Source: a virus
DNA length: 64,000 bases
Virus record (IMG/VR): IMGVR_UViG_3300032093_000021
Span: 76,165-140,164 of that record
Strand: one strand, 5' to 3'
The position numbers and the translations under genes were made by a program. This document shows, one piece after another, positions 50,962 through 57,974 of this stretch (its first letter is position 1; each line of letters begins with the position of its first letter). The notes beneath the pieces were generated by a model that did not search any database, had not been told where the DNA came from, and worked only from the letters and a program-made list of their open reading frames with translations.

Positions 50962-53364
50962 TTAAGATTCTTTTCTTAATTTTCTGTCGTAGTGATCAAA
51001 TCTATTATGTTCAGTTGGAGTCATTAATAAAATACCAGGATTTAATTCACCTTTTTTTGTCAGTTGATACATATGAGACATCCAAGTTTGTTCATAAGGA
51101 TGAGCCCAAGTGGTATCCAAAAACATTTTTTTATTACCTGTTCTACTTACAATTTGTGGCCAATTACAATAATAAATTTCTCCATCGGCATAAGGTATAC
51201 CATTATGAGATTTTATACTATTAAATTTTGTTCTTGGTGCGTTAGGATCTAATCCTTGAACAGGTAATTTAGGTTTTTCCGGCCAAAATTCTTCTCTTAC
51301 ATGTTGTGGAACATTATACCAAGACCATTGAACTCCGTTATCCCCAAAAAATTCAGTATAATTGAATTTGAGAAAATCAAAATTTTCTTTTTTAATTATT
51401 GATAAAGTGTTATCATAAAAATTTTCCACATACCTATTAAATCCATTTCTACATACATCGCCTTCTTTTGGATAGAAGAACATATCATCTTCAAAGAATA
51501 AATAATAATCTAAATCAGTTTTATCAAAATGTTCAGCAATCCATTGGCGACCTCCACATATTCCTAAATTATCCTTTTTGATATGTTCAAAACCATATTC
51601 TTTACAAATTTCTTCATATTCTTCTGTTGTTGATTCATCAGAAGAGTTATTGAGGAGAAATTTTTTTGTTTTGAGTAAAAAATCATTATCATATAAACGA
51701 AATGAATTTATAAGTGTTTGAAGTTGATTGGGTGAGTTAAAAGTTATTACGTATAAACCTACTTTATTTATATCCAAGTTATTACCACTTGAAATATTAG
51801 TTTCAGATTTAACTTCAAGTCTATCATTCTTCAAATCCTCAAAAAATTTACCCATTAATCCGTTACTTTCTATATCAAAATAATTTATTAAATCAGAATT
51901 TTTATAAGTCATAATTGAAAAAATACTTTCTTCAGTTCCCATTAGTCCATCATTTAACGTTGAAATTAATAAATTATAATATATTGAATTTATTTTTGAT
52001 ATTGTATCTTTAGGTCCACCAAAAAAACCACCTCTTGCTACTTTTTTTACTTTAGCATCGGCAATAGAGTTAAGCTTGGGATATTCAAATCCATGAATTT
52101 CATTATTGGCCTCATAAGGAAAACATACAAAAGAAAATTTTGAAATATATTTTGATAATTTTTCCAAAACTTTATCATGTGTGAAATATCCGGGATGAAC
52201 AGTATTCGTTAAACCAGCATCAATCCAAAACAAATATTTTGAATCAAACTTATCTAATATTTTTGCATCATGTAGCAGAAACATTTTGGACATAACCAAC
52301 GGGTTATACATCTCAAGTTTCGCTTGAGTTGAATCTTTTAACCAACCAGCTTGATTAAACCATTCTGGAGTTTGTCTTATTTCCTGTATTTTTTCATAGA
52401 ACTGATTGTTTTTGAACCAAGACAAATCCCTTTTCAAAAAAAGGGTATTCTCATTTTTTCTACGTGTTTTAACGAAAGTTTCAACATTTTCATCACCAAA
52501 AATGATCATATTACAGTCTACTTTCAATAACTCATCAAACTTTGATAAGTAATGATCAAAATTTCTATTCCACCCTTGAGAAAGTTCGGATCTTTTAATA
52601 TCCCATAAACCGGTCACTAAAGTAATATCAGAACCTGATTTTGTTTGTTCAACTACAACAGGTTCTGCGACTTCATTAATAGTATTGAGATCATAATGAT
52701 TTTTCAATTCATTATAAAAAAGTTTAGGAATTCCAACAATGTCCTGACCTGTAATTTCATACACAAAATTATTATCTTCAAATTTCTTCTTGATAGATTC
52801 TTTATCATCGTCGGAAAGATTTATCCATTCTAATCTGATTACTTTCGGAGAATATTTTTCAAAATCAATTTGTTTGAATATTACATAGTCATGACCTTCC
52901 GCGTCTATTTTAACAATATCAAAATTATAAAATTGATGTTTTTTGATCAATGTGTCAAAAGTTATACAAGGTACTGTTGTTAGTTTACCATAATCCTCAA
53001 CTGTTTTGCGATCAAATTCACTTCCTAATCCATTTTTAGGTGGGTATACAGCACTCATTCCATAGAAGCAAGAATGGACTAAACCCTCATCTATAACTGA
53101 TTGGTCAATCATCAACATTTTAATTTCACCCTCATAATCAGAAATTGCTGAGTTCTCAAATAATGCGGGTGATTTGATATTTTGTTTAAGTTTTTCAAAT
53201 AAGTAAGGAATTGGTTCAACATATAAAACCTTATAACCATACATATTGGTATACCCAATCATCTCATCAAATAAAACGCCGTCCATGGCACCAATATTTA
53301 ATGCGTTTGTTTCTTTTTGTTTTTTACCTAAATAGTGTAATGCCTTGTCAAAAAAATTATCCAT
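50962..53364 (-). CDS. Tri-domain enzyme: FkbM methyltransferase + HtrL/YibB-like GT + GT2-like domain
   Basis: NIGAMDG...VEPIP...NSAIS...KIDAEGHD; TLVTGLWDIKR...YNPLVMSK...FWIDAG...GGFFGG...TEE; VITFNSP...NLGICGGR...FFEDD. Confidence 0.82.
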   Translation of the reverse strand: MDNFFDKALHYLGKKQKETNALNIGAMDGVLFDEMIGYTNMYGYKVLYVEPIPYLFEKLKQNIKSPALFENSAISDYEGEIKMLMIDQSVIDEGLVHSCFYGMSAVYPPKNGLGSEFDRKTVEDYGKLTTVPCITFDTLIKKHQFYNFDIVKIDAEGHDYVIFKQIDFEKYSPKVIRLEWINLSDDDKESIKKKFEDNNFVYEITGQDIVGIPKLFYNELKNHYDLNTINEVAEPVVVEQTKSGSDITLVTGLWDIKRSELSQGWNRNFDHYLSKFDELLKVDCNMIIFGDENVETFVKTRRKNENTLFLKRDLSWFKNNQFYEKIQEIRQTPEWFNQAGWLKDSTQAKLEMYNPLVMSKMFLLHDAKILDKFDSKYLFWIDAGLTNTVHPGYFTHDKVLEKLSKYISKFSFVCFPYEANNEIHGFEYPKLNSIADAKVKKVARGGFFGGPKDTISKINSIYYNLLISTLNDGLMGTEESIFSIMTYKNSDLINYFDIESNGLMGKFFEDLKNDRLEVKSETNISSGNNLDINKVGLYVITFNSPNQLQTLINSFRLYDNDFLLKTKKFLLNNSSDESTTEEYEEICKEYGFEHIKKDNLGICGGRQWIAEHFDKTDLDYYLFFEDDMFFYPKEGDVCRNGFNRYVENFYDNTLSIIKKENFDFLKFNYTEFFGDNGVQWSWYNVPQHVREEFWPEKPKLPVQGLDPNAPRTKFNSIKSHNGIPYADGEIYYCNWPQIVSRTGNKKMFLDTTWAHPYEQTWMSHMYQLTKKGELNPGILLMTPTEHNRFDHYDRKLRKES

Positions 53365-53381
53365 TAATTAAAGTTATTTTT

Positions 53382-54239
53382 TTATTTATTTAAATCTTCA
53401 AAAATTCTATAAAAGTAAACATCATTAGGGTGATTACAACAAATACCAAGATCAACTTCTTCGTGATGCCATGTTGTAAACTTTAATGGATGATACATGT
53501 TTTTATCTCTGAAATAAAGGACTGTCATTAAGTGTTCTTCTCTTTCAAAACAATTCAACTCCACCATCTCTTTCATCAAATTTTCATAATCTTGACAAAA
53601 CTTTTTAACACTGTTTACAGGACCTCCGAACATTCCACCCACGATATGACAGTTTTCATCTCTCGGAAATTCTTTGAAAAATAATCCGTTTGGTGCCGCT
53701 TCAAACAAATGATATGTTTGATCTCCATATAAAATGACAAATTTATCTTCTATTTTATTTAAATTTTCCACCAATTTTGGTGAGAACAAATTACATGTGA
53801 AAAAAGATTCAAAACCAGTTCCGGTTCTATATCTATTTGGGAAAAGTCCGCCATGTGATAACCCACAATCAATCCAATATACATAATCGTAACCGTCATC
53901 TAAATGGTTGGACATCCACATTGGTTTTCCGTGCATCACCTCATAACAACGATCATATTTAGTTCCGTTTAAACATTTTTGAAAATATTCATGATAAGGG
54001 TGTGAATATAAATCATAATTTACTATCTTAACATTTTCAGGATACATACTTTGGTTTATTGCCGATTCTAAATGTTGTCTATCATTTTCAGACGTATAAA
54101 CAACAACGTCAGATCCCATACTAATAATTGTTTTAAGACCATGAAAATAATGCCACAATCTACCAACTCTTCCCCCCAATTTAGTATTGTCAAGACCATT
54201 ATAAAAACAGGTGACAAATAAAGTTTTTTTGTTACTCAT
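53382..54239 (-). CDS. HtrL/YibB-like GT-A glycosyltransferase
   Basis: LFVTCFY, YVYWIDCG, IVGGMFGG, EE; resembles the middle domain of 50962..53364. Confidence 0.72.
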   Translation of the reverse strand: MSNKKTLFVTCFYNGLDNTKLGGRVGRLWHYFHGLKTIISMGSDVVVYTSENDRQHLESAINQSMYPENVKIVNYDLYSHPYHEYFQKCLNGTKYDRCYEVMHGKPMWMSNHLDDGYDYVYWIDCGLSHGGLFPNRYRTGTGFESFFTCNLFSPKLVENLNKIEDKFVILYGDQTYHLFEAAPNGLFFKEFPRDENCHIVGGMFGGPVNSVKKFCQDYENLMKEMVELNCFEREEHLMTVLYFRDKNMYHPLKFTTWHHEEVDLGICCNHPNDVYFYRIFEDLNK

Positions 54240-56704: not shown

Positions 56705-56705
56705 A

Positions 56706-57974
56706 TCAACTTACAATATTATGGTCTAACCTTCCGGATATTTTATCACACCACCCTTTAGATTCAGAGTGGGGCCAAACAACCCAATATGCGGGTGTGT
56801 GAGATGTTTGGAACTCTCTCCATACTTTACAATATCTATCAGGATCATTCATCATCCTATTAATTTCATTTTTATCGGCATCTTTCCTGAATATTGTTTC
56901 ATCATCACTTGAATGGAATGCAACTGCCCAAAAATCATAATCTTTTTCAGGAACTTGAGAATATCCGATATCAATACAATGTTTGAAAATTTTTGCAAAA
57001 CTTTTTTTCCACTCTTCTTCGTTTTCAAAATCATATGGATTTGGTGGATATTTTTTATCTAATGTGTATTGTTGAACTGCTCTTTCACTAAACAAAATAC
57101 CGGAATACTTTTCATAATCTCTTAAAGTTCTAACCTTCCCGAATCCATATTTTCCAAAATCGTCAGGGTTAAATACTTCACCATCCATACTGAATAATCT
57201 TCTATTTTTAAGATGAGATTTTTTATTCTTCTCACCCCAAGTTCTATCATCATCCCATTGTTTTGTTCTACCTTTTCTTGTGTATTCGTGCCAAATAACA
57301 ACTTTATGAGGGTGGAATAAATCATATCCGTGAGTATATGCTCTTGCAGCAATTGAAATCTCTTCACCGTGAAAATAATATTCGGGATCATGTTGAACTT
57401 CTTTGGCGAACTTACCAATAGTAAAGCAGAAGTGGGCGGAATAAAAACGGGCGGTAATAGGTTCTGTAAGTTCTTGCCAACCCGGGATTGTTTCAGGTAG
57501 GAAGAATATTGCTCCTTCAGGAATAAATCTATCAAACACCATTCTCCATGGATCTCTTACTCTTCCTGCCGGGTCATTTTCAGGGTTGAATGATGAAACA
57601 TATCCGGTTAGTAATGGTTTCTTATGACCTTTCTTTTTTAATTGTTTAATCATTCCAATTAAAGTGTCATCCCAATCTTTTTCAAATCTCATATGGGAAT
57701 CAATCTGCATTGTATATTCCTCATTTTGATATAACTGTTGGGTTAGATTTCTTGCCCAACAAACACCTTGAGATTCTTGATGTGGAATATCCAAAATTCT
57801 GAATCTTGGATCGTCTTTATATTCCGATAAGTCATCAAACTTATCGTCGGGATGAAATTGTCTTGCGATTGAGAAAACTAAATTCTCAGGTCTTTTTGCA
57901 TTTGCGATACAATCTTTAACTGTTTTAACTAATTCGGGATCTCTGTAAGATGCGATTTGAATAAAGATTTTCAT
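56706..57974 (-). CDS. GT60-family glycosyltransferase (Skp1/polypeptide alpha-GlcNAc transferase-like)
   Basis: IFIQIASYRDPEL, GVCWARN, MQIDSHMRF..DWD (DSH motif), YFHGEEISIAARAYTHGYDLFHP, IWHEY. Confidence 0.85.
   Translation of the reverse strand: MKIFIQIASYRDPELVKTVKDCIANAKRPENLVFSIARQFHPDDKFDDLSEYKDDPRFRILDIPHQESQGVCWARNLTQQLYQNEEYTMQIDSHMRFEKDWDDTLIGMIKQLKKKGHKKPLLTGYVSSFNPENDPAGRVRDPWRMVFDRFIPEGAIFFLPETIPGWQELTEPITARFYSAHFCFTIGKFAKEVQHDPEYYFHGEEISIAARAYTHGYDLFHPHKVVIWHEYTRKGRTKQWDDDRTWGEKNKKSHLKNRRLFSMDGEVFNPDDFGKYGFGKVRTLRDYEKYSGILFSERAVQQYTLDKKYPPNPYDFENEEEWKKSFAKIFKHCIDIGYSQVPEKDYDFWAVAFHSSDDETIFRKDADKNEINRMMNDPDRYCKVWREFQTSHTPAYWVVWPHSESKGWCDKISGRLDHNIVS

Follow-up and report, generated by a model that had tools for sequence, protein, structure and literature searches.

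A cluster of six glycosylation genes at positions 50962-57974 of a freshwater viral DNA, headed by a glycosyltransferase of family 60 (GT60), probably encodes a soluble cytoplasmic pathway that O-glycosylates threonine/proline (Thr/Pro, TP) tracts of phage virion proteins. Among the readings that we weighed this is the best, and comparison at the sequence level leads us to put its probability at roughly 0.6. The DNA analysed (the window) is the last 64 kb, 64,000 nucleotides (nt), of the 140 kb IMG/VR viral record IMGVR_UViG_3300032093_000021, at positions 76,165 to 140,164. The record has a GC content of ~32% and is judged 47% complete, which implies a phage genome of about 300 kb. Its source is an uncultured jumbo phage of that size, and the host is probably a Bacteroidota bacterium.

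Several lines of evidence support protein as the acceptor. Genomes with GT60 carry (TP)n tracts and GT60-negative ones do not; TP-rich open reading frames (ORFs) are enriched beside the module, that is, GT60, its conserved partner p800 and the genes between them, and the same module stands beside a TP-mucin-like protein in a bacterial chromosome; virions of the cultured phage XacN1 are positive in periodic acid-Schiff (PAS) staining and XacN1 DNA is digestible; and neither a known DNA-acceptor pathway nor membrane export genes were found.

Enzymes of the cluster and conservation of the module

All six genes lie on the minus strand, contiguous and co-oriented as the initial annotation had described them, with neighbours separated or overlapping by at most 17 nt. 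A seventh minus-strand ORF, the TP-rich p354 (49871-50935), begins 26 nt past the p800 gene. With all intergenic gaps among these genes at 26 nt or less, p354 is probably co-transcribed with the cluster.

56706-57974, minus strand: GT60-family glycosyltransferase of 422 amino acids (aa), conserved 5' flank of the module (PF11397, phrog_24687)
56706-57090, minus strand: C-terminal domain of the GT60 enzyme, aa ~295-422 (about 125 aa), conserved and beyond the Pfam catalytic match
55817-56704, minus strand: p295, cassette gene, putative FUT8/NodZ/O-FucT-like GT-B protein (ESM Atlas)
54888-55829, minus strand: p313, cassette gene, GT-B protein of Glyco_trans_1_2/GT90-like (GT1-like) type (ESM Atlas features only)
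54248-54886, minus strand: p212, cassette gene, small GT-A protein with a GT8-like (retaining-type) fold (AlphaFold2 (AF2) and Foldseek)
53382-54239, minus strand: p285, cassette gene, stand-alone HtrL/YibB-family protein (TIGR02192, hhalign)
50962-53364, minus strand: p800, three-domain protein, conserved 3' flank of the module (Pfam, NCBIfam, AF2)
52810-53295, minus strand: FkbM methyltransferase domain of p800, aa 24-185 (PF05050, E 2.6e-14; TIGR01444)
51880-52632, minus strand: HtrL/YibB domain of p800, aa 245-495 (PF09612, E 9.9e-15; TIGR02192, E 2.2e-19)
50965-51762, minus strand: C-terminal GT-A domain of p800, aa 535-800 (alignment, AF2, Foldseek)

The head enzyme matches Pfam PF11397 with an E-value of 9.9e-70 (236 bits, the cut-off being 21; aligned over positions 2-43 and 99-348 of the 352 in the profile) and phrog_24687 with an E-value of 1.8e-169, and its catalytic region covers about aa 1-295. 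The IASYRD, IDSH and GEE motifs, from which the initial annotation had recognised a GT60 enzyme, are all present and, like D92-S93-H94 and H202-G203-E204-E205, invariant down to 51% identity in an alignment that took in the sequences of the phages XacN1 and Xoo-sp13 (51-52% identical). D92-S93-H94 is the predicted counterpart of the metal/nucleotide-binding DxH-type motif that the GT60 family uses, and H202-G203-E204-E205 that of the acidic motif downstream of it. Neither the GT60 sequence by itself nor a GT60 profile found a sequence match in the PDB. Characterised GT60 enzymes are polypeptide alpha-N-acetylglucosamine (alpha-GlcNAc) transferases that start mucin-type O-glycosylation in Dictyostelium and Trypanosoma cruzi (PMC8724618), and by family membership the phage enzyme may initiate with alpha-GlcNAc as well. 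The extra C-terminal domain is common to phage and Bacteroidota-type GT60 proteins; Burkholderiales homologues consist of the catalytic part only, ending at about aa 310-328, and have no p800 partner. This domain may be a candidate acceptor-recognition module, loosely like the lectin domain of animal polypeptide N-acetylgalactosaminyltransferases (ppGalNAcTs).

At the other end of the cluster, p800 contains the FkbM and HtrL domains that had been proposed for it (55.3 bits for HtrL against a PF09612 cut-off of 24.1), and its third domain is of GT-A type. The previous assignment of that domain to GT2 needs revision, as it looks GnT-I/POMGnT1 (GT13)-like rather than a member of Pfam GT2: the AF2 model (pLDDT 88) matches 1fo8 and 5ggf in Foldseek with E about 1e-7 and a TM-score of about 0.5, and an E-D-D motif is invariant. 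The conserved core of p800 comprises aa 245-800, and aa 244-800 are 40-42% identical to XacN1 ORF330 and the Xoo-sp13 homologue.

The proteins p295, p313 and p212, which have no match in Pfam, NCBIfam or PHROGs, were assigned solely through the ESM Atlas and AF2/Foldseek. A small GT-A protein with a DxD motif had been expected in p212, and this is what we find: its AF2 model (pLDDT 95.5) has as best PDB matches the Skp1 alpha-GalT (6mw5), glycogenin/GT8 and PBCV-1 A64R (2p6w), at a TMq of 0.55-0.59, and an R-D-x-D motif is invariant in a family of 186 homologues, 0 of which are assigned to a Pfam family. For p295 the fucosyltransferase-type fold holds at the level of a lead: its Atlas neighbours carry FUT8_N_cat, NodZ or O-FucT (features 0.94-0.96, predicted-structure TM-score 0.63-0.67), which makes a deoxyhexose in the glycan plausible, and p295 is a singleton cluster among 80 relatives. 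The GT-B assignment of p313 is borne out by Atlas features alone (0.96-0.97 to PF13524/PF05686 clusters), with homologues in 12 relative loci. Finally, p285 matches TIGR02192 (E 1.5e-3), stays below the PF09612 threshold (15 bits against 24.1) and is paralogous to the HtrL domain of p800 (hhalign 98.3%, E 2e-14). No cassette family is commoner than the HtrL paralogues (cluster 0), of which 69 loci hold 96 proteins. Comparison by hhalign of the p800 HtrL domain with the p212 GT-A profile indicates no relation, a result that does not settle the HtrL fold. It is thus fair to count up to seven glycosyltransferase-like domains and one methyltransferase, with the reservation that p285 and the HtrL domain of p800 belong to a family for which glycosyltransferase activity is nowhere demonstrated.

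How conserved is this arrangement? IMG/VR holds 318 GT60 relatives, the best 80 of which were used for locus comparison. GT60 and the HtrL-plus-GT-A protein (the p800 core) are fixed flanks in these 80 viral contigs, and the order GT60, cassette, p800 core, p354 homologue and polB, the gene for a family-B DNA polymerase, is kept. The interval between the flanks ranges from 0 to 9.3 kb with up to 13 genes, and its 270 cassette proteins fall into 58 clusters, including GT25, GT10 and GT11 fucosyltransferase-like, GT2, GT7C, PLOD-type and RXYLT1-like glycosyltransferases, FkbM methyltransferases, a NodU/CmcH-type carbamoyltransferase, a DegT aminotransferase and a HAD-phosphatase/nucleotidyltransferase fusion. 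A crude hydropathy scan found proteins with at least four transmembrane-like segments in 0/270 cassette proteins and no such segment in any of the six cluster proteins, in agreement with the lack of membrane anchors noted before, and nothing like a flippase, polymerase or phosphoglycosyl transferase occurs among the 270 cassette and six window proteins. Two fixed flanks around a recombining middle is the architecture of a glycan-diversifying locus, here without a lipid-carrier or export component.

Among 50,697 records, the only cultured phages with GT60 are XacN1, Xoo-sp13, CM1 and RAS14, with 44-49% GT60 identity across them. Both fixed flanks, GT60 and the HtrL/GT-A protein, thus recur in unrelated jumbo phages of Xanthomonas/Stenotrophomonas. 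In XacN1 and Xoo-sp13, GT60 is followed by a carbamoyltransferase, an HtrL paralogue, an ORF and a p800-core homologue (GT60, HtrL paralogue and p800-core homologue are ORF334, ORF332 and ORF330 in XacN1). Their DNA polymerase has no match to the window polB in tblastn, and they therefore appear to be a different phage lineage. A megablast search of the 7 kb region against the same records gave no match, relatives existing at the protein level only.

In GTDB genomes, 54 loci encode GT60 relatives, and the p800 core follows most of the full-length ones. Many of these loci are probably phage contigs binned into metagenome-assembled genomes (MAGs) of Saprospiraceae or other Bacteroidota. As a separate observation, MAG contigs L105-L113, labelled Saprospiraceae, Bacteroidia, Melainabacteria and Proteobacteria, carry 65-74% identical GT60 genes within a phage-type module, and are mostly, we think, jumbo-phage contigs mis-binned as bacterial; Saprospiraceae, which recur among the binned contigs, may be hosts. 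In the isolate Jiulongibacter sediminis JN14-9, the module lies inside a 1.3 Mb chromosomal contig (contig5; L125:5942-13145). The order there is UDP-glucose dehydrogenase, epimerase, a second GT60 and a 262-aa TP-mucin-like protein, then GT60, a carbamoyltransferase and, with a match to p800 that spans aa 3-800, an FkbM-HtrL-GT-A protein. The 262-aa protein is mostly a Thr/Pro/Ser tract behind an RR-containing, hydrophobic, signal-like N-terminus. HNH and DUF2357/PD-(D/E)XK defence-type genes follow the module in this strain. In aquatic "moraphages", which infect Bacteroidota and reach 307 kb, four glycosyltransferase orthogroups have been reported among the widely shared genes, with their targets unassigned.

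Thr/Pro tracts as candidate acceptors

Tracts were scanned for as DNA patterns coding (TP)4 with one mismatch allowed and the reversed pattern as control. The 140 kb record gives 7 matches (control 0), XacN1, Xoo-sp13 and CM1 give 30, 21 and 20 (control 0-1 per genome) and five GT60-positive relatives give 41, 6, 3, 38 and 16 (control 0), whereas seven GT60-negative jumbo phages (SCTP-2, Atu_ph07, G, phiKZ, RSL1, PTm1 and PAU; 2.38 Mb) give 1 match in total, equal to their control (1 in total). The initial annotation had suggested looking for co-occurrence of GT60 with Thr/Pro tracts across phages, and such tracts are indeed coded in 9/9 GT60-positive phage genomes tested.

An association is also seen at the level of single loci. 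In a set of 70 GT60 loci, dereplicated at 85% identity and giving counts that are not phylogenetically independent, TP-rich ORFs make up 36/279 of the ORFs at most 2.5 kb from the module vs 18/422 of those further out, and the odds ratio of TP-rich ORF proximity is 4.2 (p 4e-5) when only loci in which a p800 partner was detected are counted. Bacterial loci add examples of TP-rich neighbours in Bacteroidota, Verrucomicrobiota and Planctomycetota. Burkholderiales loci have no adjacent TP neighbours, and in three of them a TP-rich ORF lies at a distance of about 4 kb.

In the 140 kb record, long TP(S) tracts occur in five encoded proteins, namely p354, a 2276-aa tail-region protein and three proteins of 754-1103 aa; a TP-rich insertion is further found in the tail sheath. 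The candidate acceptors inside the window are as follows.

49871-50935, minus strand: p354, candidate acceptor, with a conserved 125-aa N-terminal domain, a middle domain and TP tracts at aa 144-172 and 276-330
50560-50935, minus strand: N-terminal domain of p354, aa 1-125 (no Pfam or PHROG family)
35586-35693, minus strand: Thr/Pro-rich insertion in the tail sheath, aa 287-322 (tract scan)
17259-17339, minus strand: Ser/Thr/Pro tract, aa 2092-2118, near the C-terminus of the 2276-aa tail-region protein (tract scan)

The tail sheath protein (33213-36551) has 1112 aa and matches phrog_23 (E 3e-57) mainly over aa 820-1110; its long N-terminal part holds a Thr run and the TP tract, which is therefore certain to lie in a virion protein. 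In about 60% of relatives the N-terminal 125 aa of p354 form a gene of their own between p800 and polB (e.g. L014:14557-14937); in the remaining relatives TP tracts and extra domains lengthen the protein to 200-1095 aa. This domain looks like an anchor onto which display modules are grafted. The three TP-array proteins, located outside the window (G000:C1:57758-67656; L104), contain (TPTN/TETP)n arrays. Among them, Bacteroidota adhesin modules occur as five DUF285 (BspA-like) repeats in one protein and as SprB repeats in one other, and the three proteins flank a 326-aa phrog_4417 protein without a Pfam family. We also considered the TP proteins as cargo of the type IX secretion system (T9SS) or the Sec pathway and rejected this, as none of the TP-rich phage proteins examined has a signal-peptide-like N-terminus and only a weak, internal Por_Secre_tail match was seen.

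Among the XacN1 tracts, one belongs to ORF325 (3313 aa), the gene of which ends at a distance of about 3 kb from the cluster, and others belong to a row of paralogous ORFs, 232-237, and to ORF372 and ORF384. At least two protein bands from virions of this phage are Schiff-positive (PAS-positive), and BssHII, NaeI and SpeI cut its DNA (PMC5852040). The authors of that study suspected their two annotated glycosyltransferases and named neither GT60 nor a link to TP tracts (PMC5852040).

In the window, a DUF1353/tail-assembly-chaperone-like protein and a PHROG "virion structural protein" are encoded upstream of the cluster, and p354, a 971-aa fibre-like protein and polB (44060-46831) downstream.

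46929-49844: 971-aa fibre-like protein with a long C-terminal array of short Asn-rich repeats of N-N-x-F/Y type

The Asn-rich protein matches no Pfam or PHROG family and looks like a beta-helical fibre; homologues occur at other positions in some relatives. The layout of mycobacteriophages, in which glycosyltransferase genes adjoin capsid or tail-tube genes and the acceptors are C-terminal, is not the one seen at this cluster, because its neighbours are the chaperone-like, structural, p354, fibre-like and polB genes and the tracts are internal linkers. A scan with a sigma-70 promoter and terminator model, which does not cover Bacteroidota-type promoters, found fewer promoter-like sites than in shuffled sequence.

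Proposed pathway and competing acceptors

How could the enzymes work together? What follows on acceptor, step order, sugars and biological role is what we infer from the comparisons above. GT60 would start a glycan in the cytoplasm on Thr/Ser of TP tracts, by family analogy with alpha-GlcNAc from UDP-GlcNAc, in p354, the large fibre-like proteins, the tail-sheath insertion and the 2276-aa tail-region protein. The conserved HtrL and GnT-I-like protein, the p800 core, would add the next, conserved core residues, and interchangeable cassette enzymes (the FUT8-like GT-B, the GT1-like GT-B, the GT8-like GT-A and the HtrL paralogue) would add strain-specific decorations, after which the fused FkbM methyltransferase might O-methylate the terminal sugar. 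Fucosylation and methyl capping are suggested by family membership. In this way exposed parts of the virion would acquire a variable coat of glycan, whose role could lie in adhesion, protease resistance or shielding. The initial annotation is partly borne out: its core, a cytoplasmic initiate-extend-cap pathway that acts on Thr/Pro-rich phage proteins rather than on DNA or host lipopolysaccharide, fits every comparative test that was run, its alpha-GlcNAc, fucose and methyl cap being suggested by enzyme families. A wider proposal, which we make tentatively and hold to be possible rather than probable, is that of a prokaryotic O-glycosylation module of mucin type, mobile and soluble, made up of GT60 and the HtrL/GnT-I-like bidomain protein. 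It would be common to several bacterial phyla and at least two unrelated jumbo-phage lineages, would write a conserved core on TP tracts and would be diversified in an O-antigen-like way by its recombining cassette.

A number of observations weigh against virion proteins as acceptors or against parts of the pathway. In the roughly 60% of relatives with the stand-alone domain, the gene after p800 has no TP tract; a TP-rich ORF lies within 2.5 kb in only 24/70 loci, and Gemmatimonadota loci have none within that distance. The GT60-positive phage genomes represent only two lineages, hence few independent events, and variable regions of host interaction may simply be where TP linkers and glycosyltransferase islands both accumulate. 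Assignment of p354 and the large TP proteins to the virion is presumptive. The HtrL/YibB family is known only from uncharacterised members of lipooligosaccharide (LOS) loci, and a glycosyltransferase role for HtrL domains is unproven; fusion of FkbM to p800 occurs in only 4 of the IMG/VR loci. The cluster had been described as embedded between fibre genes rather than DNA-metabolism genes, and while it has a fibre-like neighbour, polB is only 4.1 kb downstream, the module directly adjoins polB in most relatives, and XacN1 has a DNA polymerase/RNaseH/NUDIX block a few genes upstream of GT60.

The strongest alternative, which we nevertheless regard as unlikely, is remodelling of the host envelope, whereby lipid-linked host intermediates of LOS, O-antigen or capsule would be the substrates of the enzymes at the cytoplasmic face, and the altered surface of the infected cell would serve to block superinfection or aid release. 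Families such as HtrL/YibB and GT25 are typical of LOS and lipopolysaccharide (LPS) loci, which counts against a virion acceptor, and cassette variation is O-antigen-like; the Jiulongibacter locus adjoins UDP-glucose dehydrogenase and epimerase genes, and Iyer et al. (2021) read jumbo-phage glycosyltransferase clusters as outer-polysaccharide modification systems (PMC7824862). However, by the crude hydropathy scan no flippase, polymerase, phosphoglycosyl transferase or GtrA/B/C-type component accompanies the enzymes, although host machinery could be used in their place, and characterised members of the head enzyme's family act on polypeptides. Envelope remodelling also leaves the genome-wide and local association with TP tracts unexplained, and in XacN1 it is the virion proteins themselves that stain as glycoproteins.

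Less probable again is that the same chemistry serves proteins outside the virion, either phage TP-rich adhesin-like proteins released or displayed at lysis, or proteins of the host. The SprB and DUF285 (BspA-like) repeats of the large TP proteins are typical of Bacteroidota surface adhesins, the virion location of these proteins is presumptive, and the signal-like N-terminus of the Jiulongibacter TP protein, with its RR pair, implies that the bacterial version of the module serves an exported cell protein. The phage TP proteins, on the other hand, have no signal-like N-termini, one TP tract sits in the tail sheath, and the glycoproteins of XacN1 were found in purified virions.

Hypermodification of DNA, in which an oligosaccharide on hydroxylated pyrimidine would serve restriction evasion as in T-even phages, RB69/DLP3, YerA41 or the 5mYOX/ThyA-linked pathways (Pyle et al.), is a reading to be taken seriously in principle that we nonetheless consider very improbable. 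Besides the proximity to polB in most relatives and to the replication block in XacN1, it can draw on phage GT-A and GT-B enzymes that put mono- to oligosaccharides on 5-hydroxymethylcytosine (5hmC), 5-hydroxycytosine (5hoC) and thymidine derivatives, on a ThyA-family protein encoded in the genome, and on the fact that only 47% of the source genome is in hand. However, that ThyA homologue ranks by score as a true thymidylate synthase (288 bits with TIGR03284, whose cut-off is 108) and keeps the Asn of the FNIASY motif, and a 100%-complete relative has a single thymidylate synthase homologue while a 98%-complete, GT60-carrying relative (G002) has none. DNA-base glycosylation requires an enzyme that supplies the acceptor hydroxyl (a dCMP/dUMP hydroxymethylase or 5hoC synthase of the ThyA family, or TET/JBP together with a C5-methyltransferase), and none was found in the 47% complete record; TET/JBP and C5-methyltransferases are missing from the same 140 kb by a search that for TET had no positive control, and TET/JBP also from five relatives, with controls for that family that gave no signal anywhere. 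In addition, XacN1 DNA is digestible by three restriction enzymes, and GT60 and HtrL are absent from the text of the DNA-glycosyltransferase preprint of Pyle et al. As to a possible kinship of GT60 with the JGT-like DNA GT-A family, the R...DDD...EDY/F motifs reported for that family differ from the DSH/GEE of GT60, and we found no paper connecting the base-J glucosyltransferase with Gnt1. The ThyA homologue (G000:C1:2966-4090; L003:1492-2616; outside the window) has 374 aa, about 60-110 aa more than solved thymidylate synthases, and its alignment to these is broken into two or three blocks.

Relation to known glycosylation systems

Experimental demonstration of glycosylated phage particles comes almost only from actinobacteriophages, and what this cluster suggests is a system of another kind, far more elaborate and widespread among jumbo phages of the environment (318 viral contigs, with copies in bacteria besides), with a defined initiator family, a recognisable acceptor signature in the Thr/Pro tracts and a glycan-diversifying cassette. 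If virion proteins are indeed glycosylated in this way, phage particles would gain a strain-variable glycocalyx, the orphan HtrL/YibB family would get its first functional context, and a prokaryotic relative of the protist initiators of mucin-type O-glycosylation would bear on the evolutionary roots of GT60 initiation. It would also bear on how hosts, grazers and immune systems read phage fibres, and might provide a soluble toolkit for glyco-engineering of peptides in bacteria. Direct tests are feasible in the culturable phages XacN1, Xoo-sp13, CM1 and RAS14 and in Jiulongibacter sediminis.

Among characterised systems, the GT60 enzymes of protists (Dictyostelium pp-alphaGlcNAcT/Gnt1 and the T. 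cruzi mucin initiator) share with the phage enzyme the full-length catalytic match to PF11397, the Thr/Pro-rich, mucin-like character of the presumed acceptors and, for Dictyostelium Gnt1, the cytoplasmic location. The mucin-type protist enzymes are type II membrane proteins of the Golgi, whereas phage GT60 is soluble; moreover, unlike the protist enzymes, phage and bacterial GT60 have the extra ~125-aa C-terminal domain and a fixed HtrL-plus-GT-A partner, and the activity of the phage enzyme is a predicted one.

Mycobacteriophages Che8, Corndog and Myrna, in the account of Freeman et al. (2023) as cited in PMC12619734, likewise encode cytoplasmic glycosyltransferases that act on virion proteins, with a proposed shielding role. 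According to the same citing source, one to few glycosyltransferases are encoded there beside capsid or tail-tube genes and modify C-termini (PMC12619734). In contrast, the phage studied here has a GT60-headed operon with up to seven glycosyltransferase-like domains and a swappable cassette, and its candidate acceptors are internal TP linkers of many proteins, a difference that concerns organisation.

The chlorovirus PBCV-1 (A064R and others) resembles the proposed pathway in being virus-encoded, cytoplasmic and not reliant on the endoplasmic reticulum or Golgi, and its A64R GT-A domain came up among the structures that p212 matches. In A064R, an enzyme of several domains, glycosyltransferase domains are joined to a methyltransferase. 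PBCV-1 differs in that it is a eukaryotic virus, makes atypical N-linked glycans on its major capsid protein and has no GT60 or HtrL. In the serine-rich-repeat adhesins of Gram-positive bacteria, O-GlcNAc is initiated in the cytoplasm by GtfA/B on a long, low-complexity Ser/Thr tract and extended by strain-variable soluble glycosyltransferases encoded beside the substrate gene, as we propose here; the GT4 initiator pair GtfA/B, the accessory Sec export and the absence of a phage set them apart.

XacN1 and Xoo-sp13 share with the window phage GT60, the p800-core homologue (40-42%) and the HtrL paralogue, and XacN1, Xoo-sp13 and CM1 are rich in TP tracts. These phages and RAS14 differ in their gammaproteobacterial hosts, in what appears to be another lineage and in a cassette that holds a carbamoyltransferase. 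Virion glycosylation in mycobacteriophages and glycosylation of capsids or fibrils in chloroviruses and mimiviruses are already established. The apparently new elements are recognition of the head enzyme as a GT60 protein, its obligate partnership with an HtrL/GT-A protein, the arrangement of a cassette between two fixed flanks, the occurrence of the same module beside mucin-like proteins in bacteria and the genome-wide link to TP tracts.

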